Assembly: GCA_017621415.1 (NCBI GenBank)
Contig: JAGATD010000033.1
Location: 83,311 to 147,310 of the forward strand
DNA length: 64,000 nucleotides
Source: Clostridia bacterium
Lineage (GTDB): Bacteria; Bacillota; Clostridia; Oscillospirales; CAG-272
Direction: 5' to 3'
Below the pieces are notes generated by a model. The model was not told the origin of the DNA. It worked only from the letters and a program-made list of their open reading frames with translations, and did no database searches. The first letter of the stretch is position 1; every line of letters begins with the position of its first letter. This document shows positions 779-49,390 of this stretch, piece by piece. The position numbers and the translations under genes are program-made.

Positions 779-2032
779 ATGGAAAAATTCAGTGAAAAAT
801 GGCAGGCTCTCGAAGCCGAAGCAAACAGACGAGGCGGTGACGGGGAAGCGATAGTTGCCGCTATGAAGGACCACTACAAGATATACAGCGAGAGCATTTA
901 TCTTTGGCTTGCGGGACTTTATGATAAAAACGTGGGAGGCTTTTATTATTCCAACTCAGGAAGAGATAACGAGCCATTCCGCCCGGATATTGAATCCACA
1001 AATCAAGCGACAAACTTTATGCTCTCCTCGGGGCTTATTGATAAGCCTGAGGACCTTCCTCTTGCTATGAGAGAGCAGATGACAAAATTCTGTCAGAGCC
1101 TTATCAGCCCGACAGACGGCTACATTTACCATCCCCAGTGGGACTATAACGACCCGAATTGGAAGCAAAAAGATTCCAGAATGGGCAGAGATATGGGCTG
1201 GGCTGTAGATATGGCAAGAAAATTCAAGTTCAAGTACCCTTATCCCACCGCCAACGAAAGACTCAAGGCATCTCTTGAAAAGTCTGCGAAAAATGATGAT
1301 AAATCCAACCTTGCGCCTCATCTTCGCTCGGCTGAAGCTCTTTGGGAGTATCTCGAAACCTACAACTGGGAGACCGATGCATACTTCTCCGGTAATAACG
1401 TTGTAGCGCAATCCGGACAAATAATCGCCGCGGGGCTTAAGGATGTTGCAGTAGACTTCCTAAATAAAAAACAGAATCCCCAAACCGGACTGTGGGGTGT
1501 TCAGGGGGGCTATGTAGGAATAAATGCTCTGTTAAAAATTTCCGGTTTCTACAGAGAGGCAAAGGCGGTTATGCCCAACTCTGACAAGGCAATGCAGGCG
1601 GCAATAGATTGTATTACCTCTGACGAGGACTGCGGAACGATATGCTACCAGTATAACGCATGGTTCTCTGTAAGCAATATTCTTGAAATACTCAGAAACA
1701 TAGGCACTACGGAGGCAAAAGCCGAAGCCGAGAAGGCGCTCAAGGTGCTTTACAAGGGGGCACCCGAGGCCATAAGAGCAACTACCGAAAAGGTAAAAGC
1801 CTTTGCAAAGCCCGACGGCGCATTCTCCTATTTGCAGAAGACTAGTACAGGCTTCTCACAAAAGGCACCCGTATCAATTCATATGACTGTCGAGAGTGAC
1901 GTTAACGCAAGCGTTATTGCCAGCACCGGCACAACAAGGCATATGTACCAAGCTCTCGAACTGCAAGACTTCTTTGTTCCATTCTTTGATAAAGAGGATA
2001 GAAAAAAATTCATAGAAGCCCTTGATTATTAA
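779..2032 (+). CDS. alpha/alpha-toroid-like repeat protein (prenyltransferase/terpene-cyclase-like repeats), no signal peptide; function unknown
   Basis: 417-aa ORF. Full-length paralogue of 45352..46725 and of residues ~186-640 of 40086..45326 (shared LYD..VGGFYYSN, PD.EST.QA, NAWF, PEAI..T.EK...FAKPDG.FSY, E.DVNA). Repeated G-aromatic motifs (GGFYYS, TGLWG, DGAFSY) resemble toroid repeats. Confidence 0.75.
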   Translation: MEKFSEKWQALEAEANRRGGDGEAIVAAMKDHYKIYSESIYLWLAGLYDKNVGGFYYSNSGRDNEPFRPDIESTNQATNFMLSSGLIDKPEDLPLAMREQMTKFCQSLISPTDGYIYHPQWDYNDPNWKQKDSRMGRDMGWAVDMARKFKFKYPYPTANERLKASLEKSAKNDDKSNLAPHLRSAEALWEYLETYNWETDAYFSGNNVVAQSGQIIAAGLKDVAVDFLNKKQNPQTGLWGVQGGYVGINALLKISGFYREAKAVMPNSDKAMQAAIDCITSDEDCGTICYQYNAWFSVSNILEILRNIGTTEAKAEAEKALKVLYKGAPEAIRATTEKVKAFAKPDGAFSYLQKTSTGFSQKAPVSIHMTVESDVNASVIASTGTTRHMYQALELQDFFVPFFDKEDRKKFIEALDY

Positions 2033-2091
2033 TCTAAATGTAAAATATTGTTAGCAAAAACAAACAAAAAACAAGAGAAAGGAGTGACGGC

Positions 2092-2232
2092 ATGAGATGC
2101 AAAAAAGAAAAAAGCTTGTATCAAGCTCCGGAAATTGTGATAACAGAGCTTTATATACCCGACATTATCACCACCTCGGGACCCCTTGGCGGAGATGAAT
2201 CCGATGGCTTTGACGCAGGCGGCTGGACCTAA
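2092..2232 (+). CDS. small 46-aa ORF (MRCKKEKSLYQAPEIVITELYIPDIITTSGPLGGDESDGFDAGGWT), not in the ORF track; paralogue at 46778..46906
   Basis: ATG 7 nt downstream of AAAGGAG (2079-2085). It sits in the same intergenic slot as a second small ORF in the paralogous cassette. Shared core: Y.A.E(I/V)...(hydrophobic)..DI(I/V)TTSG, then a Gly/Asp/Glu-rich tail ending W(T/A). Confidence 0.6.
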   Translation: MRCKKEKSLYQAPEIVITELYIPDIITTSGPLGGDESDGFDAGGWT

Positions 2233-2298: not shown

Positions 2299-3753
2299 AT
2301 GAACAAAATTAAAAAGATTTTTGCTCTTAGCGCACTTGCGGTATGTCTTGCAGGTATGGTTTTTGCCTTCGGCTCTTCCGCAGGAAGTGAAAGTAAGCCC
2401 GAAATTATTTCAAAGAACGTAATGTACACCGACAAGTTTATTCTTATGTATGCCGTTGACGCAGAAACGGTGGAGGGAAATGAAGCGATCCTTAATGTTT
2501 ACGAAGAGTATCCTACAGAGACTTCTACACCCGTTTGTACATTAAAGGATACTACCACAGAGACTGTTAAAAAGGCTGACGGAAATACCCACGAATGCTA
2601 CGTATTTATTACCAACGGAATTTCCGCAACCAAATTTACCACCAATTATTACGTAACCGTAACCGACGGCAAAAATGTAAGCGATGTTGTAAGATACAGC
2701 GTTGCCGAGTACTTAAATGAGCGCCTTTACAAAAACGGCATTGTCAAGGTCACCGAGGGAGATGACTTATGGAGAAAGGAATTTTACCTTTCCACTCTTG
2801 AATTCGGTGCAAAGGCGGAGCATGTTCTGTTTAATCTTGATGATAAGGCAGAAAATGACAGAGACGACCTTGTAACCGACTATAAGTACATCTACACAGA
2901 TCTTGGAACAATTGACGGATTTTACTCGGGCATTTATGCTCCCGGAACAGAGGTTGATGTTACTTACACAGGAAGCGATTCCAATGTTAAGGGCTGGACT
3001 GTTGAAAACCTCCAAAGCGGTAAAAAGGAATTTCTTGCCAGCGGCGCAAAGCTGACAGTTAGCGCAGGCTATTATTTGGAGCCAAACACGTTAGGAACTG
3101 TGTTCGAATTCGGCAAGGGCATTTATTACAATGATACAGCAGTTACAAGCGCTGCAAGATTTGATTACAGCAGTATGATAAGCATATCCGGATATATGAC
3201 CCGCTCTCTTGTAGACGGAACATTTAAGGCGACAAAGCAGACCGATCCCTCCACGGGACTTTGCTATGCGTCAGAAGCAACTGTATATGGTGCGGATAAT
3301 GCGGTTAGTGATTCTGTGTATACAGCAATGACAAATCCTGCGCTTGTATTTGAAACGGACATTATGTTTGATGGTTTTGACAATGATACCATATCAAATA
3401 TAATGGTCAGATTTAACGGTCTTGGCAAGCAAAACAGATTCTACCTTACAACCGACGGTGAGAAAGTAACACTTTCAGGTACTAACTTAAGCCTTGAGAT
3501 CGGTGAGTGGTACAACCTTAGATTTGAGTTTTATAAGGTCAGCGACTCCGGAGATAACGGAACTTATGCAACAAAGATTTACGTAAACAACGTATATGTA
3601 GGAACAAAAACTCCTACCACAGATGCAGGAACATCCCCATCGTTCCGCTTCAGACTTTATATGACAAAGGATGCATTGGCTCCCGACTCAACATTCTATC
3701 TTGATAATACTTTCTACGGATACGTAGATAAAGCTTATGTTGCGGGTCAGTAA
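2299..3753 (+). CDS. secreted protein with N-terminal beta-rich region and one C-terminal LamG-like jelly-roll module
   Basis: Start moved to ATG 2299 (MNKIKKIFALSALAVCLAGMVFAFGSSAG signal peptide; GGAAAAG upstream); the ORF-track start is 2239. The N-terminal region is homologous to that of 46954..49146 (YSVAEYLNERLYKNG vs VSVGHYLYTKLYKEG). C-terminal motifs GEWYNLRFEFYK..IYVNNVYVG..FYLDNTFYGY. Confidence 0.8.
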   Translation: MNKIKKIFALSALAVCLAGMVFAFGSSAGSESKPEIISKNVMYTDKFILMYAVDAETVEGNEAILNVYEEYPTETSTPVCTLKDTTTETVKKADGNTHECYVFITNGISATKFTTNYYVTVTDGKNVSDVVRYSVAEYLNERLYKNGIVKVTEGDDLWRKEFYLSTLEFGAKAEHVLFNLDDKAENDRDDLVTDYKYIYTDLGTIDGFYSGIYAPGTEVDVTYTGSDSNVKGWTVENLQSGKKEFLASGAKLTVSAGYYLEPNTLGTVFEFGKGIYYNDTAVTSAARFDYSSMISISGYMTRSLVDGTFKATKQTDPSTGLCYASEATVYGADNAVSDSVYTAMTNPALVFETDIMFDGFDNDTISNIMVRFNGLGKQNRFYLTTDGEKVTLSGTNLSLEIGEWYNLRFEFYKVSDSGDNGTYATKIYVNNVYVGTKTPTTDAGTSPSFRFRLYMTKDALAPDSTFYLDNTFYGYVDKAYVAGQ

Positions 3754-3812
3754 AATTTAAACACCGTTGTATTGAAGCTAACGAAAAAATAATTTGATAA
3801 AATAAAAAAGTT

Positions 3813-3844
3813 AAAAGCGACACTTGAGAGAGTGTCGCTTTTTG
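3813..3844. terminator. bidirectional intrinsic terminator between convergent genes
   Basis: AAAGCGACACT-TGAGAG-AGTGTCGCTTT, flanked by an A-run upstream and a T-run downstream. Confidence 0.7.
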
Positions 3845-3902
3845 CGCTCTAAAAGCCAAGAAATGTAAATAAATATTGTCAAAATGCCGTTTTATCTGTG
3901 TT

Positions 3903-4520
3903 TTAACGTCTTATAAAGTTCGTCTTTGCTGCGGATTCCTTTTCGGGGAGTCCGTATTTTTCTTTGCCGAGAGAGATGGATTTTATCATAAATGCCATGT
4001 TTCTTGCGAGGTTGCGCATAGTCTGCATACCCTCTTCGTCAAAGGAGGCATCCTCGCCGTTTGAGCCATGTACCTGGTTCCAATAGGAGCTTGTGGCGAT
4101 AGGCATACCGGAAATAGAGAAATACTTGTTTATTACGTCAAAGCTGGCGGTACAGCCGCCTCGTCTTGCGCAGACTACTGCAGCTCCCACTTTCATAGTT
4201 TTATCAAACTTTGAGCTAAAGAACAGACGGTCGAGAAAGGCTACAAGACTGCCGTTTGGCGAAGCATAGTAGACAGGGGAGCCGACAATAACTCCGTCAG
4301 CCTCTTTCAGCTTTTCCGCCGCCTCGTTTACCGAGTCTTTTATAACACACCCGCTTCCGTCTTTACATCCCAGGCATACCATACAGCCCTTTACACTTGT
4401 ACCGATGTGCAAAATCTCGGTTTCCACACCCTCTTCTTTAAGAATGCGTTCAGCCTCGGACAGAGCGGTAAAGGTTGTGCCGTTTTTATGAGGCGAACCG
4501 TTGATTAAAAGTACTTTCAC
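3903..4520 (-). CDS. flavodoxin-like fold NAD(P)H-dependent FMN reductase / iron-sulfur flavoprotein family
   Basis: MKVLLINGSPHKNGTT.. N-terminus, VIVGSPVYYASP motif and a Cys cluster CMVCLGC..GC typical of this family. Confidence 0.8.
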   Translation of the reverse strand: MKVLLINGSPHKNGTTFTALSEAERILKEEGVETEILHIGTSVKGCMVCLGCKDGSGCVIKDSVNEAAEKLKEADGVIVGSPVYYASPNGSLVAFLDRLFFSSKFDKTMKVGAAVVCARRGGCTASFDVINKYFSISGMPIATSSYWNQVHGSNGEDASFDEEGMQTMRNLARNMAFMIKSISLGKEKYGLPEKESAAKTNFIRR

Positions 4521-6372: not shown

Positions 6373-7235
6373 TGATGAAAACTGTAATTGGAATAGATGT
6401 TGGAGGCAGCACAACTAAGATTGTGGGCTTCCGTATAGAAAAGGGGTGCTGCGAGCTGATAGAGCCGCAGATAGTTAAGGCTAATGACCCCATAACTGCG
6501 ACATATGGCGCTTTTGGAAAATTTACTGATGAAAACAATCTGAAGTTTTCTGATATAGCCAAGGTTTATATGACAGGTGTAGGCTCTGCCTACATTCGCA
6601 AAAATCTTTACGGTCTCTCTTGCGAGAGAGTAGAGGAATTTAACAGTATAGGACAGGGCGGACTTTATCTTTCGGGCCTCTCTGAAGCCTTGGTTGTGAG
6701 CATGGGTACAGGTACTGCTATGGTACATGCAAAGGCAGATGGAAAAATGACCTACCTTGGCGGTACGGGTGTCGGCGGCGGTACTCTTATGGGACTTTCA
6801 AAGCTTATGCTCGGCGCTGAAACCGTTGAACACATTATCGAATATGCCGAGGAGGGCAGCCTTGATAACATAGACCTGAAAATCAAGGATATGACCGCTG
6901 ACGATTCGCTCACGGCATTGTCTCGCGACCTTACCGCAGCTAACTTCGGAAATGTATCCGACCTTTGCACAAAAAACGATATTGCTATCGGAATTCTCAA
7001 TCTTGTTTTCGAGACGGTGGCTATGGTATCTGTTTTTGCCGCCAGAAGCGTTGGTGTATCTGACATTGTGCTCACAGGAAGCATAACTCAGCTGGCTCTG
7101 TGCCGTAAGAAGTTTGAGGAGCTTAATGCTATGAATTACGGTGTTAAATTCCATGTTCCAGAGCGCTCAAGGTATGCAACAGTCATAGGTACGGCTATCA
7201 GAGCTATACCGTGTGAGTACTGCGAGGTAAATTAA
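6372..7235 (+). CDS. coaW: type II pantothenate kinase-like (Fumble/CoaW family, ASKHA fold)
   Basis: GIDVGGSTTKIVGF phosphate-1 motif, GTGTAMV, GGTGVGGGTLMGL, IVLTGS. The start overlaps the upstream stop (TGATG). Confidence 0.65.
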   Translation: MMKTVIGIDVGGSTTKIVGFRIEKGCCELIEPQIVKANDPITATYGAFGKFTDENNLKFSDIAKVYMTGVGSAYIRKNLYGLSCERVEEFNSIGQGGLYLSGLSEALVVSMGTGTAMVHAKADGKMTYLGGTGVGGGTLMGLSKLMLGAETVEHIIEYAEEGSLDNIDLKIKDMTADDSLTALSRDLTAANFGNVSDLCTKNDIAIGILNLVFETVAMVSVFAARSVGVSDIVLTGSITQLALCRKKFEELNAMNYGVKFHVPERSRYATVIGTAIRAIPCEYCEVN

Positions 7236-31416: not shown

Positions 31417-32859
<1,443 letters not shown>

Positions 32860-32958
32860 TTATATTTTTGCGCAAAAAAGCAAAACCAAAAATGAACTTT
32901 AATTTATCATTTTTCATTTTCAATTTCTCATTTAAGGCGAAATTTTTCGCCTTAAAGC

Positions 32959-33261
32959 GCTTCGCTGCCGGAAACGATCTCTGTTATTTCTTGTGTTATA
33001 ACTGCTTGACGAGCTCTGTTTCCAGCCTTCCCCTTGGGGAAGGGGGACCGGCTTGCCGGTGGATGAGGTGGCTACAATGCTTCGCTGCCGGAAACGATCT
33101 CTGTTATTTCTTGTGTTATAACTGCTTGACGAGCTCTGTTTCCAGCCTTCCCCGTTGGGGAAGGGGGACCGGCTTGCCGGTGGATGAGGTGGCTACAATG
33201 CTTCGCTGCCGGAAACGATCTCTGTTATTTCTTGTGTTATAACTGCTTGACGAGCTCTGTT
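32959..33261. repeat. tandem repeat, period 120/121 bp, 2.5 copies: 62-bp atpG 3' end plus a 58/59-bp double-hairpin element
   Basis: The 62-bp unit GCTTCGCTGCCGGAAACGATCTCTGTTATTTCTTGTGTTATAACTGCTTGACGAGCTCTGTT occurs at 32959, 33079 and 33200. Elements lie at 33021..33078 and 33141..33199. Confidence 0.95.
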
Positions 33262-34041
33262 GTAGCTTAACATCAAGCTATCAATCATCTCGGTCGCGTT
33301 TTTGTTTGCTGCGTTCATTGCCGTTCGTCTTGCACCTGATTCAGAAGCCAGCGACTCGGAGACTGCAGACGCTAAAACTCCTCCGATGTACTGTGGCACA
33401 ATTTTATCAAGCATTTCCTCGGGGTCACCCTCAAAGAGAATATCGTTTTCTTTAAAATCGGTTTTGCTTTCCTCGTTGTTAAAAGGAAGAAGATTTACAC
33501 TTTGAGGAAGCTGTGTCAGCATTGAAACAAATTTTGTATACACAAGTGTCACTCGCTTAAATTCACCGTTTTTGTATCCCGTGGCAATAAGCCTTGAAAT
33601 GTCAAGCGCCCTGCCAACAGATACGTCATCTGCATATTCGAATGAGTCGCTGAAGATAGGAGTGCCTCTGTGGCGATAATGCTCAAGCGCCTTTTTACCT
33701 ATCGGTAAAACAATATCGCCCTCGTTATATAAGGATGCCGCAAGCTTAAAAATGTTAGAGTTGTATCCTCCTGCAAGACCTCTATCACCGGCTATTACAA
33801 TAAGGAGACCGGGTCCGCCATCTGACTTAGCCGACCAGACAGAGCCCTTGGCTTCTGATGAAGCATCTATTATGTCGATAGCACTTCTTATAACCTCAAA
33901 ATAAGGGCGTGACCTTTCGGCCTTTTCCTTTGCGCGCCTGAGCTTTGATGTAGCAACAAGCTCCATAGCTTTGGTTATCTGTCTTGTGCTTTCGACACTT
34001 TTTATGTGAGCTTTAATGTCATTCATTGACCTGCCAGCCAT
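33193..34041 (-). CDS. atpG: F1 ATP synthase gamma subunit
   Basis: 282 aa; I...ES..QITKAMELVA..KLRRA and C-terminal NRARQA.IT.E..EI.SG. Confidence 0.95.
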   Translation of the reverse strand: MAGRSMNDIKAHIKSVESTRQITKAMELVATSKLRRAKEKAERSRPYFEVIRSAIDIIDASSEAKGSVWSAKSDGGPGLLIVIAGDRGLAGGYNSNIFKLAASLYNEGDIVLPIGKKALEHYRHRGTPIFSDSFEYADDVSVGRALDISRLIATGYKNGEFKRVTLVYTKFVSMLTQLPQSVNLLPFNNEESKTDFKENDILFEGDPEEMLDKIVPQYIGGVLASAVSESLASESGARRTAMNAANKNATEMIDSLMLSYNRARQAVITQEITEIVSGSEAL

Positions 34042-34089
34042 GACGTTTTTTCTCCTTTCTGTAAACTATTATTTTCAAAATAGCCTGTT

Positions 34090-35592
34090 TTAGAAATTTT
34101 CTTTGCAGTGGTTGATAGCATTTTTGAGAATTTCTTCGTTCTCAGAAGAGAGAACTCCGCTTGTTCTAATGTCTGCAAGAAGACTCTCGCAGTTTGAGGT
34201 GAGATACTCGAACAGTCTCTCTTCAAAGAGCGGAATATCCTCTACTGCAATTTCCTTAAGCATATTATTGACTACCGCATATATAATGGCTACCTGAAGC
34301 TCTACTGCGATAGGTGAATTTCTGTTTTGCTTAAGAACCGCAACAATTCTTTCACCCTGGGCAAGGCGAGCCTTTGTGTCGGCATCAAGGTCGGAGCCAA
34401 ACTGAGCAAAGCCTGCAAGCTCGCGGTACTGAGAGTAAAGGAGCTTAAGAGTTCCCGAGACCTTTTTCATCGCCTTGATTTGCGCATTACCGCCAACACG
34501 GGATACCGAAATACCGGGGTTAACCGCGGGTCTTACACCCGAGTGGAAAAGCTCGGTTTCAAGGAATATCTGACCGTCGGTGATAGAAATTACGTTTGTG
34601 GGAATATAAGCAGAAACGTCGCCTGCCTGCGTCTCAATTATCGGAAGAGCGGTAAGCGAGCCGCCGCCATACTCGGGTGCAAGACGCGCCGCACGCTCAA
34701 GAAGTCGTGAGTGAAGATAGAACACGTCTCCCGGATAAGCCTCTCTGCCCGGGGGGCGTCTGATAAGCAGGGAAAGCGCTCGGTATGCGACTGCGTGCTT
34801 TGACAGGTCGTCGTAAATTATGAGAACATCTTTTCCTTTATCCATAAAGTATTCACCCATAATACAGCCGGAGTATGGAGCAATATACTGCAGGGGAGCG
34901 GGGTCTGAGGCGGTTGCCGCAACAACTATGGTGTAGTCCATAGCCCCTGCCTTGGTCAGGGTTTCAACAACACCTGTAACCGTTGACTGCTTTTGTCCTA
35001 TGGCAACATAGATGCATATAACATCCTTGCCCTTTTGGTTGATTATTGTATCGGTGGCAATAACGGTTTTACCTGTTTGGCGGTCACCGATAATAAGCTC
35101 ACGCTGACCTCTGCCGATAGGAATCATTGAGTCAATAGCCTTAATACCTGTTTGTAACGGTACAGAAACAGATTTTCTCTCAATTATTCCATAGGCGCGT
35201 CTTTCAATGGGATTATATTCGGCAGCTTCAATGGGACCCTTGGAGTCTACCGGCTCACCGAGAGCATTTACAACTCTGCCAACCATGTTTTCGCCGACAG
35301 GGACTGATACAACTCTGCCTGTGCGCTTAACAAGGCTGCCCTCGCTGATGCCAACATCACTGCCGAGAAGAACCGCGCTGACAAGATTCTCTTCAAGGTT
35401 AAGCGCCATACCGTAGGTGCCGTTTGAAAACTCAAGAAGCTCGTTGGACTTGCACTTATCAAGGCCGTGAACTTTTGAAATACCGTCACCAACAGAGATA
35501 ACATAGCCAACCTCGTCTTGCTCGGTTTTCTTAGAGTAGTTTTTTATCTGCTCTTTAATTATCTTGCTGATATCATCTATTTTAGATTGCAT
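34090..35592 (-). CDS. atpA: F1 ATP synthase alpha subunit
   Basis: Walker A GDRQTGKT; 500 aa; typical alpha-subunit motifs. Confidence 0.95.
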
Positions 35593-46953: not shown

Positions 46954-49146
46954 ATGAAAAACACAAACCATTCCCGCATTCTTATTTTAGCTCTCTCGCT
47001 TGTAATTCTCGTAGGCGCTATGGTTGGCTTCTCCTCAAGCGCTGAGGACACAGAATATACGAACGAGATCGTATCTATGAACATCGCATACGGCGACACA
47101 GTTCAGGTTCTTATTGCTCTTGACGCTCCCATAGACAACCAGGATGGTATTACTGTTAAGTATATCGACCCTAATGGTGACGAGCAGACCGCAACCTATT
47201 GGAAGACAATGGACGTTAAGGGTACCAATCGCCCTGTATGGTACACTAAGGGCATATCCGCAAAGGACCTTGGTCAGGATGTTGTTGCTACCGTTTATGT
47301 TGACGGTGAGGCTATCAGCACCGCAAATGTTAGCGTTGGACATTACCTTTACACAAAGCTTTACAAGGAAGGTTTTATCAACGCAACCGAAGAAACAGAC
47401 CTTCACAAGAAGGAGCTTTACCAGAACCTTCTTACCTATGCGGCATCTGCTGAGACTGTTCTTTGGAATGATAAGGCAGAGAATGCATCTAACCAGAGAG
47501 TTCTTATTACCGATAAGCTTTACGTTTATGCGGTTGATGGCACTGTTGACGCAGACAAGAAGCTGACAGAGGACGTGCTTACAAAGTCCGAAACTGTAAC
47601 TCTTAACTATACCGGCACCGCTCCAGAGGGATATGAGTTTACAGGAATTTGGCTTTCTTCTATCGACGGTACATCGGTAATAAAGGATGGCGTTGCTACA
47701 ATGCCTACCGTTCACGGTGTTTACGAGCCTATATTCGACTCTGTGACCCATACCGTCGGCAAGTATTATTCCAGCGAAACCGAGGGCACAAGATACGACT
47801 TTGATACAAAACTCAATCTTTCCGGTGACGATCAGACAGACCTCTCGGTTTATAATGCTGAAACCAATCCTACAGGCATTCTTGCAAACGAGCTTGGTGC
47901 AGATGCAACAGCCAGCCTTGTTTCCGATAAGCTTTCTACTCTTGACAACTCTACAGGCGAACTTGTATTTAATATGACCTCCACCGACTGGACCGGCTTC
48001 AATCTTGCTAACAAAAGTGACACAGAAGGTGCTACGGGCTCAAAGTATATCGCGGAGTTTGACTTTACCTACATTGATTCCGCAGCTTACACAGGCTCAG
48101 GCAGCTCCAATCAAGTTGCATTCTACATAGGACCCACATCTTATAACGAGAACGACAAGTATATGCACTCTATAACTCACGCAAAGTTTGAGGCAGACCG
48201 TGAGGTAATGATGTTCGGTAACGTTCCTGTGGTAAAGGGCAGAACCTATACTATTCGAATCGAAACCACCGTTGACGGTAGCTATGCTCTTTACGTTAAC
48301 GACGTTCTCGCTGCCGATAAGCCTGGTTATTACACCAATGAAGCTGAAATTCCTGCAGATTATGATGAAACAATCTATGCAGGCTTTGGATTCACTGTTC
48401 GTCAAAGACACGCAGGCGATAGCTTCTCGTTCTCTGTTGATAACTTCTATATGGGTACTATCGACTCATATTATGATGATAAGACGGTAGCAGGTGACAG
48501 ATACGACTTTACCGATAGCTTTGATGTTTCGGTATATGATGCGGAATCCAATTCCACAGGTCTTCTTGCAGGAACTCTTACAAACGATGATGTTGATGCT
48601 CTTCAGACTAAAAAAACTCTGTCGCTTACCAACACCGACAGTCGTCTTCTGGTTGATATGACAACAAGAGAATGGGCAGGATTTACTATTGCAAACAGAG
48701 AAGCAGTTACTGCATATGAAGGCTCTGTTCATATTGCCGAGTTTGACTTCACCTACATTTCTAACACTGCATATACCGGCACAAGCAAACCAGACTATAA
48801 TGCATTTGCTTTTGGTATCTCCAGTAGTGGAGGTGCTCTTAACAGTATGATCTGTTACAACTATGTGGACCACAAGGATGATACTTTTGGAGGATCTCTT
48901 GCATATAATACTGCAGTATTCGAGATGAACAAGACCTACAGGATAAGAATTGAGAGCACTGTTGGCGGTGACGAGCTTATCTACGTTGATAACGTTCTCG
49001 TTTCTAAAAACGCAAGTGCCAAAGGTAAATCGAACGATCCTTACATCTACGCAGGTCTTGGATTCTACTTCCGTGACAGACACGCAGGAGATGCTTTGTC
49101 ATTCTCTATCGACAATCTGTTTATGACAACTCTTGATCCTAAGTAA
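46954..49146 (+). CDS. secreted protein with an N-terminal beta-rich region and two LamG-like jelly-roll modules
   Basis: Start at ATG 46954 (AAAGGTG RBS). Signal peptide MKNTNHSRILILALSLVILVGAMVGFSSSA. Modules GTRYDF...KGRTYTIRIETTVDG..LYVNDVL...FSVDNFYMG and GDRYDF...NKTYRIRIESTVGG..IYVDNVL...FSIDNLFMT. Confidence 0.85.
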   Translation: MKNTNHSRILILALSLVILVGAMVGFSSSAEDTEYTNEIVSMNIAYGDTVQVLIALDAPIDNQDGITVKYIDPNGDEQTATYWKTMDVKGTNRPVWYTKGISAKDLGQDVVATVYVDGEAISTANVSVGHYLYTKLYKEGFINATEETDLHKKELYQNLLTYAASAETVLWNDKAENASNQRVLITDKLYVYAVDGTVDADKKLTEDVLTKSETVTLNYTGTAPEGYEFTGIWLSSIDGTSVIKDGVATMPTVHGVYEPIFDSVTHTVGKYYSSETEGTRYDFDTKLNLSGDDQTDLSVYNAETNPTGILANELGADATASLVSDKLSTLDNSTGELVFNMTSTDWTGFNLANKSDTEGATGSKYIAEFDFTYIDSAAYTGSGSSNQVAFYIGPTSYNENDKYMHSITHAKFEADREVMMFGNVPVVKGRTYTIRIETTVDGSYALYVNDVLAADKPGYYTNEAEIPADYDETIYAGFGFTVRQRHAGDSFSFSVDNFYMGTIDSYYDDKTVAGDRYDFTDSFDVSVYDAESNSTGLLAGTLTNDDVDALQTKKTLSLTNTDSRLLVDMTTREWAGFTIANREAVTAYEGSVHIAEFDFTYISNTAYTGTSKPDYNAFAFGISSSGGALNSMICYNYVDHKDDTFGGSLAYNTAVFEMNKTYRIRIESTVGGDELIYVDNVLVSKNASAKGKSNDPYIYAGLGFYFRDRHAGDALSFSIDNLFMTTLDPK

Positions 49147-49228: not shown

Positions 49229-49390
49229 AAGGCTTCCCCAGCGAAGCGTGTTGGGGAAACTGTCACGCAGTGACTGATGAGGTAAGAGATAGGCTAGATT
49301 ATTGTTTGACTTGCGTTTTTCTTAAAGTTAGCCTCTGGAACACCTCATCCGTCAGGCTTCGCCTGCCACCTTCCCCCACTGGGGAAGGCT
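49229..49390. repeat. inverted pair of REP/MITE-like double-hairpin elements (same family as 33021..33078 and 33141..33199)
   Basis: Left copy 49229..49283 (AAGGCTTCCCCA..TTGGGGAAAC TGTCAC-GCA-GTGAC TGATGAGGT). Right copy 49341..49390 in reverse orientation (CACCTCATCC GTCAGGC-TTC-GCCTGCC ACCTTCCCCC-ACT-GGGGAAGGCT). Confidence 0.75.

Follow-up and report, generated by a model that had tools for sequence, protein, structure and literature searches.

A putatively foreign atpG 3' end beside a hairpin repeat in the atp operon of a Clostridia bacterium, and the association of that repeat with DUF559 nuclease genes

Mobile open reading frames (mORFs) have been described at the 3' ends of fungal mitochondrial genes, namely, atp6 of Allomyces macrogynus and atp6, atp9, cox2, and nad3 of Glomus, where they carry a foreign C-terminus and leave the native C-terminus displaced downstream (PMC3630166). 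Here, we describe a similar arrangement in a 64,000-nucleotide stretch of a Clostridia bacterium genome (the window; assembly GCA_017621415.1, contig JAGATD010000033.1, positions 83,311 to 147,310 of the forward strand). At the junction between atpG and atpD, which encode the F1 gamma and beta subunits, three copies of a 62-nt atpG 3'-end block (A) are interleaved with two copies of an ~48-nt hairpin module (E). On balance, we think that a foreign atpG end and E probably displaced the native gene end, that the resulting unit was then amplified in tandem, and that the locus is a relic of a selfish element. This reading draws on direct observations of the repeat anatomy, the E family, the association of E with genes for DUF559 proteins, allelic repeats at other E loci, and polymorphism in the number of units (zero, one, or two) among strains.

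As in the mORF systems, a putatively foreign C-terminal segment is in frame with the host gene, and the native segment lies unused downstream; the native copy resembles that of relatives, while the inserted copy, though diverged, specifies an identical or almost identical peptide. In both systems the mobile unit carries a gene for a DNA endonuclease, a predicted one in the present case, and the host is again an ATP synthase gene. Unlike the mORFs, this system is bacterial, its nuclease belongs to DUF559 (Vsr/EDxHD type) rather than to the LAGLIDADG or GIY-YIG families, and conserved two-hairpin modules in inverted orientation form the ends of the unit; moreover, at atpG the nuclease gene is absent, and a single, tandem-amplified terminal module is what is left. 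Set against the mORFs feature by feature, atpG has both an in-frame incoming end (A plus GCA TTG TAG) and a displaced native end (A plus GCG CTT TAA, as in relatives). The relative-like native copy and the synonymously diverged inserted copy can be told apart by the base at offset 59 of A (A59 versus G59), although the markers are few and the copies in the window are identical. An endonuclease open reading frame (ORF) between the two end copies is absent from atpG and present at two other loci, L169 and L174. Occupation of one and the same host gene in L146, L148, and L174 is indirect evidence that the endonuclease may drive homing into element-free alleles.

Positions below are those of the window. 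Tandem Repeats Finder reported a repeat at 32959..33261 with a period of 121, 2.5 copies, 99% matches, and a score of 597, and direct reading of the sequence resolved it into three identical A copies of 62 bp (copy 1, 32959-33020; copy 2, 33079-33140; copy 3, 33200-33261) separated by spacers of 58 bp (33021-33078) and 59 bp (33141-33199). The sole difference between these spacers is an additional G in the hairpin-1 loop (CCCCTTGGGG versus CCCCGTTGGGG). On the gene strand, the order is atpG...TAC / A / ATTGTAG-E-GGA / A / ATTGTAG-E-GGA / A / GCTTTAA-hairpin-spacer-atpD. Since the 58-mer had no second site in the window and none of 100 shuffles contained any match, a chance origin of the repeat is excluded.

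Only A copy 3, on the minus strand, is part of the live gene, of which it forms the last 62 nt before Ala-Leu-stop. The ORF list and its translation place atpG at 33193..34041 (minus strand, 282 amino acids ending in EIVSGSEAL, with the stop codon TAG at 33193-33195), and a PF00231 gene call was obtained on metagenome scaffolds that encode the identical protein. The live gene ends in GCA TTG TAG (33193-33201). The middle copy is noncoding on the minus strand (33079..33140), with ATTGTAG next to it on the gene strand, whereas the copy farthest downstream is followed by GCG CTT TAA (32952-32960) and would encode the same Ala-Leu-stop. This last copy and its stop codon (32952..33020, minus strand, noncoding) match the atpG ends of element-free relatives and represent the displaced original 3' end. 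The gamma subunit ends in SGSEAL from the live end and from the displaced native end alike; the two ends differ by 4 changes in 3 codons, all synonymous, and the protein is unchanged because the incoming end encodes the same Ala-Leu-stop. These results agree with an earlier note on this DNA, which had described three copies of the atpG end with only the last one live, an unaltered protein terminus, and an atpG-atpD spacer of ~360 to 370 bp.

The distance from the live atpG stop codon to atpD is 369 nt, relative to about 121 to 128 nt in element-free relatives. Within it, a native stem-loop (UUUAAGGCGAA-AAAU-UUCGCCUUAAA; 32931..32956, minus strand; -13.7 kcal/mol; fold z-score, -3.4) overlaps and directly trails the original atpG stop codon, and a hairpin occupies the equivalent position in relatives. 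Beyond the spacer, atpD (31417..32823, minus strand) encodes 468 amino acids according to the ORF list and was also called on two metagenome scaffolds, L130 and L131.

The boundaries of E were set with metagenome contigs and 145 family members. E copy 2 (33144..33192, plus strand, 49 nt) reads AG CCTTCCCC GTT GGGGAAGG GGGA CCGGCTTGCCGG T GGATGAGG TGG; it is E(+) on the plus strand and hence E(-) when read along the atp operon. It is flanked by TCC (33141-33143) and by CTACAAT (33193-33199), the latter comprising the last Ala base, the Leu codon, and the stop codon of live atpG. E copy 1 (33024..33071, plus strand, 48 nt) is identical except that its hairpin-1 loop is TT rather than GTT. In metagenomes, only 33024-33071 and 33144-33191 reached depths of 100 to 1,500, continuing into many different flanks; therefore, the repeated module is ~48 nt long. 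The earlier note's 58/59-bp hairpin element is thus a discrete element as proposed, but its conserved part is shorter, and the TCC and CTACAAT flanks (ATTGTAG on the gene strand) lie outside the family core. For the same reason, and contrary to what that note had supposed, GCA TTG TAG is not element derived, and it differs from native ends only synonymously. Its sequence would fit a genuine atpG end from another lineage that arrived with E.

We compared the spacer with that of relatives and found, as the earlier note anticipated, element-free alleles both in related species and in close strains. Three related Eubacteriales metagenome-assembled genomes (MAGs; L001, L002, and L005), whose AtpG proteins are 89%, 75%, and 68% identical to that of the window (the last over a partial match), have an ordinary ~120-nt atpG-atpD spacer without an insert, which indicates that the insert is lineage specific. 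In all three, atpG ends in GCG CTG/CTT TAA with the hairpin next, and the GCG CTG TAA form differs from the live window end by three synonymous transitions. Two further metagenome scaffolds encode an identical gamma subunit: L131 has one unit, and L130 has a gap of 100 Ns that falls exactly within the repeat (2937-3056), an example of how E-associated repeats break short-read assemblies. Many other E matches also sit at contig ends.

To compare strains, contigs and unitigs from public gut metagenomes were aligned to the atpG-atpD region. Contigs from runs X5, X6, and X9 join 32958 directly to 33200 and represent an element-free allele with the native end, and a contig from X10 joins 32958 to 33079 and represents a one-unit allele. 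In X3, X11, and X13, element-flanked A copies carry single nucleotide polymorphisms (SNPs) of their own, with the element on both sides of A copies in X3 and X13. Alleles with zero, one, and two units therefore coexist in close strains. Since one-unit alleles exist (L131 and X10), the two-unit form is best read as the product of tandem amplification, which accords with the duplication of an ~120-bp unit suggested in the earlier note.

Variation among strains in the A copies is confined to offsets 11, 26, 35, and 59, all of them synonymous third positions, even in copies that are not translated. The live copy in X3, X11, and X13 differs from the other copies only at offsets 26 and 35; copy 2 has an A at offset 11 in X3 and X13 and also at offset 59 in X3. 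At offset 59, an A is found in displaced copies (X3, X10, X11, and X13) and in the empty allele (X5, X6, and X9), and a G is found in the live copy.

Relative to the element-free strain, the atpD side is 0 to 0.3% diverged; in atpG, at the inner A boundary, divergence climbs abruptly to 8.8% and then drops to about 5%, 2.3%, and 1.1% into atpA and further. This step looks like the edge of an imported tract that ends at the insert. Over 33262-34900 (atpG-atpA), the window is 5 to 9% diverged from the X5/X6/X9 strain, relative to 0 to 1.7% elsewhere, and 17 of 25 differences examined in this tract are synonymous; judged by this pattern, the tract is a recombination import ending at the insert. 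The two sides of the insert are equally similar to the outgroup L001 (87.4% and 87.9% identity), so this comparison cannot tell which of the two strains is the recombinant.

The spacer proved to belong to a family found elsewhere, in support of the earlier note's view of it as an element. A degenerate search of a species-representative genome collection with the pattern CCTTCCCC-N3-6-GGGGAAGG-N10-25-GGATGAGG identified at least 120 loci, most of them in gut and rumen Clostridia but including isolates of Gemmiger, Pseudoflavonifractor, Bifidobacterium, Rhodanobacter, and Luteimonas; BLAST added Rhizobiaceae, Xanthomonas sacchari, and a Planctomyces plasmid. The family thus occurs mainly in Clostridia and also in isolates of Proteobacteria, Actinobacteria, and Planctomycetes, while E. 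coli genomes had no E match. In the BLAST matches, E was unannotated throughout, and where matches fell in plasmids and phages, the annotation was uninformative. From the pattern matches listed, 145 copies were taken. Their consensus is AG-CCTTCCCC-loop-GGGGAAGG-TG-[hairpin 2]-C-GGATGAGG-TG(G), with no similarity outside, and both atp copies fit this core of stem-loop, spacer, hairpin 2, and GGATGAGG.

The 145 copies contain 109 distinct hairpin-2 sequences, which covary clearly: 91 compensatory cells were counted, relative to 34 ± 4 in shuffles, none of 500 shuffles scored as high, and slid registers gave at most 37. Pairs were counted from hand-set columns, as RNAalifold on a MAFFT alignment missed hairpin 2 because its stem lengths vary. 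Variants with compensated stems were met alongside (CCTTCTCC/GGAGAAGG and GCTTCCCC/GGGGAAGC). C(GNA)G triloops, the hyperstable DNA mini-hairpin type, make up half of the hairpin-2 loops, and the orientation of E relative to neighboring genes is random (25/23/19/15). No Rfam 15 family matched the atp region or 18 E loci; the best overlapping match was whalefall-1, at 12.5 bits relative to a gathering score of 37, and the only family found at the 18 loci was a cobalamin riboswitch located elsewhere. Taken together, the covariation, the triloops, the random orientation, and the lack of an Rfam match point to E being a DNA-level repeat rather than a cis-acting RNA. Searches of the literature for the E motif, REP-like repeats of Clostridia, and DUF559 yielded no account of such an element; the family is unannotated and absent from Rfam.

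Most E copies are solo. E starts 0 to 5 nt past a stop codon in 9 of the 145 copies, and convergent E pairs without a gene between them are common (the window, L016, L071, L086, L093, Xanthomonas, and Planctomyces). The pair in the window, found by a relaxed pattern scan and sequence inspection, spans 49230..49390 and is intergenic, following a gene that ends at 49146; this second locus makes E a multicopy sequence in the genome. It combines an E2-type copy at 49230-49285 on the plus strand (GGCTTCCCC...GGGGAAAC TG TCACGCAGTGA CTGATGAGG), which has a small extra hairpin in loop 1, with an E-type copy at 49340-49390 on the minus strand, ~55 nt away, that fits the family core and has a DNA fold z-score of -3.5. 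A 30-mer of the E variant found at atpG, including the CTAC flank, had no exact match in genome and viral collections, nor did a 33-mer of its core in genome and metagenome collections; the variant seems to be private to the source species.

E also forms local tandem arrays with periods of ~66, 95, 228, and 399 bp, which include L024 (~1880-2200, minus strand), L012 (3119-3391), L048 (1428-1874), L098 (~7070-7200), and L025 (~3790-4020). In L025, a 25-nt block containing a hairpin is present three times just past a gene stop, alternating with two different E variants. In the sufB-sufC spacer of X. sacchari (L212, 1494-1640), E(+) lies 8 nt past the sufB stop and is followed by a short-form inverted partner that lacks hairpin 2 (CACCCTCACCCC-AA-CCCCTCTCCC-GGTG-GGAGAGGGG). 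Sequences of this type are very common in Proteobacteria, and the family may be much larger than the search pattern shows.

The specific recurrent neighbor of E among the 145 copies is a gene for an ~120-amino-acid DUF559 protein whose start codon directly follows E(+). ABC-transporter ATPases and leucine-rich proteins also recurred and were dropped as generic families; no recombinase and no Y1 transposase of the REP-associated tyrosine transposase (RAYT) type or DDE transposase recurred among the neighbors. In the reverse direction, 80 loci encoding DUF559 relatives were fetched, and the counts refer to 79 of them. E(+) ended 6 to 12 nt before the DUF559 ATG at 50 loci, an inverted E(-) overlapped or lay just past the DUF559 stop at 60, and E was present at both ends at 44. 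Where units are 87 to 91% identical between genomes, the similarity stops exactly at the outer E ends, which defines E(+)-DUF559-E(-), ~0.45 kb in length, as the mobile unit. For the E copies at atpG, the nearest match is the right-end E(-) of the L146, L148, and L169 units. On our reading, the 58/59-bp spacer is a solo E, and E probably forms the terminal inverted repeats of an ~0.45-kb selfish DUF559 element.

The DUF559 proteins next to E match PF04480 and the structures 3HRL (E = 3e-17) and 3R3P (E = 2e-4) in the PDB, and they retain the motif I/V-E-L-D-G-x-x-H. 3R3P was deposited as a "mobile intron protein" and, in PMC3424549, is grouped with Vsr/DUF559 and described as a group I intron homing endonuclease. 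By homology, the DUF559 protein is a predicted nuclease with a Vsr/EDxHD-type fold that is related to the homing endonuclease I-Bth0305I. Thus, in structure match and motif it resembles the EDxHD/Vsr-like homing endonucleases (I-Bth0305I, 3R3P), the known members of which, according to two reports, lie in group I introns or between split-intein halves (PMC3239194, PMC2677866). The E-bracketed candidate nuclease genes differ from these in being free-standing, ~120 codons long, and bracketed by hairpin repeats. DUF559 genes are also enriched among predicted programmed-inversion targets (PMC9881135), a result that the flanking inverted repeats would produce.

Within the units (loci L132 to L211; for example, L133, 549-990, and L169, 545-1000), E(+) supplies a Shine-Dalgarno-like GAGGTGG 6 to 8 nt before the DUF559 ATG, and the ORF ends inside E(-), with a C-terminus of TSS(V/D)TS or STSSTASGPPSPQGEG. 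At atpG, each E(+) likewise places GAGGTGG 5 nt before the ATG of a 14-codon ORF (MLRCRKRSLLFLVL-stop; 33061-33120, plus strand, antisense to atpG), which is probably incidental yet mirrors the position of E(+) as a DUF559 ribosome-binding site. Several units from different genomes have a conserved promoter-like block (TTTTTGTCCCTAACTTGACAAAATCATATAAT), in which both the -35 and the -10 hexamer are good, immediately beyond their right end and sometimes upstream as well (L010, ~590-640; L055; L133; L134; L136; L141); the block may be part of the mobile unit or a sign of neighboring tandem units.

The DUF559 elements are usually found immediately past a host-gene stop codon. Of 43 complete units, 21 to 26% are flanked by imperfect direct repeats of 30 to 70 nt that abut the unit, compared with 0 to 4% of controls at the stricter score and 4 to 9% at the looser one. 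Across all E copies, flanking repeats occur at ~8 to 11%, relative to 0 to 3% of controls, and a search for short target duplications of fixed length was not convincing. Where the repeats are coding, they represent two alternative, functional versions of the host-gene end. The host-gene 3' end is doubled around the unit in L169 (480-550 and 1000-1075) and in L174 (500-560 and 1005-1070), and nearly all differences between the copies are synonymous. In L169, the upstream gene ends in ISDTAKENILGGTLKKVLGV-stop, and the second copy past the unit encodes ISDTAKENILGCTLKKVLGV-stop; the two differ by 13 nucleotides, which alter 11 codons, 10 of them synonymously (TAA versus TGA among these). The live gene in L174 no longer has its own stop codon but runs into E(+) and terminates at the TGA of the E(+) loop (PEENNEPSP-stop), whereas the displaced copy keeps PEESNTEE-stop. 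The same host gene is occupied by a unit in L146 and L148, where the unit lies 3 nt past the natural stop (PEENKTEE-stop). Where both copies appear to have been shaped by purifying selection, a fresh duplication followed by decay of one half is excluded; these repeats are two alleles, one brought with the element and one resident.

These observations suggest how a gene end may be replaced. When a locus with the element enters a related genome, it would find homology on the gene side only; consequently, the far end would be joined illegitimately, placing the incoming gene end, its stop codon, and the element upstream of the resident gene end, which would be pushed downstream as a dead copy. For atpG, the donor lineage would have had E immediately past the atpG stop (...GCA TTG TAG/E). 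A donor tract from atpA to atpG with E would then have replaced the resident sequence, an event that could account for the observed structure, markers, and divergence step. The joint would be GGA/AACAGAG, 71 nt before the resident stop, leaving the resident 62 nt and GCG CTT TAA downstream. Finally, the 121-bp unit would have become two units by unequal homologous recombination, with a 1-nt loop indel arising in one of them. In this sequence of events, A copy 3 (33200-33261) would be the incoming foreign gene end, and later homogenization or recent amplification would explain why the three A copies of the window strain are identical. The earlier note's proposal of insertion at the stop codon with in-place duplication of 62 bp is thereby revised to a foreign end lying beside a displaced native one.

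Several points weigh against gene-end replacement. The three A copies in the window are identical, so later homogenization has to be assumed. The donor arrangement, in which TAG-E is followed by sequence other than A, was not found in genome, viral, and metagenome scans, and an exact scan of metagenomes for the junction between the live end and E gave no match. The divergence step could merely mark recombination tracts that end where the fast-evolving spacer begins, and the tie between the displaced copies and the empty allele depends on roughly one informative marker, offset 59. About 90% of solo E copies have no flanking repeat, and the search pattern itself accounts for part of the invariance of hairpin 1 and GGATGAGG. 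Moreover, tblastn detected no DUF559 gene in the 64-kb window, and there is no left-hand E at atpG or elsewhere in the window. The link between atpG and DUF559 therefore rests on E, and the locus is at best a relic rather than a complete member of the class.

More broadly, we tentatively propose, with less conviction than for atpG itself, that E and DUF559 form an undescribed cross-phylum class of selfish elements in which a free-standing Vsr/EDxHD-type nuclease gene with two-hairpin bounds homes beside stop codons. E would probably act as single-stranded or cruciform DNA, and the elements would carry replacement gene ends. They would have left thousands of solo modules behind in bacterial genomes and seeded recombination breakpoints and tandem arrays, even in essential operons such as atp and suf.

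We also considered whether E belongs to a described class of repeats. E resembles repetitive extragenic palindromes (REPs), bacterial interspersed mosaic elements (BIMEs), and miniature inverted-repeat transposable elements (MITEs) in being short, GC rich, hairpin forming, extragenic, and multicopy; like them, it occurs in both orientations, frequently as convergent pairs, and at times within operons. Unlike REPs, it has no GTAG/CGTC tag (the GTAG beside the atp copies is not common to the family) and is conserved across phyla, whereas REPs are species specific; unlike REPs and MITEs, its autonomous partner appears to be a nuclease gene rather than a transposase, and it has no short target duplication of fixed length. 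A REP/RAYT origin was rejected because the flanks past GGATGAGG vary (TGG, TGT, GG, and AGA) and no Y1 transposase is a neighbor. The MITE class was rejected because, although convergent pairs exist, flanking repeats are absent or long and variable and the parent encodes a nuclease. E is not a described RNA family either, given the whalefall-1 score, nor an intrinsic terminator, as no GC-rich hairpin with a U-run occurs in 32700-33400. The locus is also not a clustered regularly interspaced short palindromic repeat (CRISPR) array, since its spacers are the same but for one indel and its "repeat" is atpG coding sequence. Hammerhead and other ribozymes, riboswitches, integron attC sites, diversity-generating retroelement repeats, and CRISPRs were dropped on motif order, orientation neutrality, and identical copies.

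Among the alternative origins of the atpG repeat, the one that fares best, though we regard it as unlikely, is that a solo E was inserted by cutting and filling between nicks ~62 nt apart, which would have created a true 62-bp target duplication that was then duplicated in tandem. The filler ATTGTAG would have restored Ala-Leu-stop by chance, with selection keeping only such events. The identity of the three A copies in the window favors this model, which corresponds to that of the earlier note, and the variable-length flanking repeats (16 to 70 nt) at ~8 to 11% of solo E copies and 21 to 26% of DUF559 units would suit it as well, as would L025, in which an A-E''-A-E-A order with two E variants looks as though one site had been struck twice. 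Chance repair is costly, since a random 7-mer would yield Leu plus a stop in a calculated ~0.4% of cases, whereas insertion a few bases further on would need no reading-frame repair at all. The differences between A copies in other strains are all synonymous third-position changes, a pattern that a dead copy made in place would not show, and the end copies of L169 are likewise almost entirely synonymous (10 of 11 changed codons). A59, shared by the displaced copies and the empty allele, also argues against in-place duplication and for displacement of a native end.

It is more doubtful that the insert was kept because it is useful, as REP-like intercistronic stem-loops that protect the upstream mRNA or form a processing site tuning the 1:3 ratio of gamma to beta. 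Each unit does add two hairpins in the operon sense, worth about -21 kcal/mol, and the spacer as a whole has a fold z-score of -5.8, but single units fold no better than shuffles (z-score, about -1.1). Intercistronic stem-loops in Clostridia are reported to set subunit stoichiometry (PMC4423207, PMC9045158), and E also occurs between sufB and sufC in X. sacchari; against this, the family has no orientation preference relative to genes, and relatives do without the insert. No terminator-like site was predicted in 32700-33400, and the atp E copies are followed by GGAAACAG rather than by a U-tract. Three metatranscriptome runs (X19, X21, and X22) contained few contigs from the source organism. 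The coexistence of zero-, one-, and two-unit alleles in close strains suggests that the insert is nearly neutral. A regulatory role for it in the atp operon is possible but unsupported, and the insert most likely affects atp expression little or not at all.

Preservation of a gene end by means of a duplicated 3' segment is typical of site-specific integrative elements. We nevertheless consider it very improbable that the locus is the footprint of a tyrosine- or serine-recombinase element at the atpG 3' end, with the 62 bp as the attachment (att) core and the 58 bp as a remnant. The resemblance to prophages and integrative and conjugative elements is that the host gene stays intact through a substitute 3' end while the old end lies beyond the insert. 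In contrast to such elements, which have a constant att, the flanking repeats of E are locus specific, differing in sequence and length at every locus with varying boundaries; no recombinase recurs beside E or clusters with it, and the sequence between the repeats at atpG is a complete member of a dispersed 48-nt family.

Finally, wrongful expansion of one copy or unit by the assembler, a concern raised in the earlier note, can be set aside almost entirely: the 121-bp period is shorter than a read, L130 has its gap in the repeat, and L131 has one unit only, but the spacers differ by an indel, the A unitig in X1 has a depth of 45.9 relative to 13.4 to 13.5 for the flanks (~3.4-fold; ~2.4-fold in X2), junction unitigs specific to both spacer variants are present in X1, and the A copies in X3 and X13, which come from other studies, are element flanked on both sides with SNPs of their own, so that depth and junctions in X1 together with the strain alleles in X3, X5, X6, X9, X10, X11, and X13 exclude an artifact.

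For the atp operon itself, the insert probably matters little, given that the gamma subunit is unchanged and strains with zero, one, and two units coexist. The E family is more notable than the atpG locus, as a conserved 45- to 50-nt module that extends from gut Clostridia to Xanthomonas, Rhizobiaceae, Bifidobacterium, and Planctomyces and is tied to an uncharacterized nuclease, DUF559. If our reading is correct, DUF559 would gain a testable function as a homing or selfish nuclease with DNA-hairpin ends, and its appearance among "programmed inversion" targets (PMC9881135) would be explained. The gene-end replacement described for fungal mitochondria would then extend to bacteria, and the elements would give rise to recombination boundaries, to gene-end duplications, and to breaks in the assembly of MAGs.

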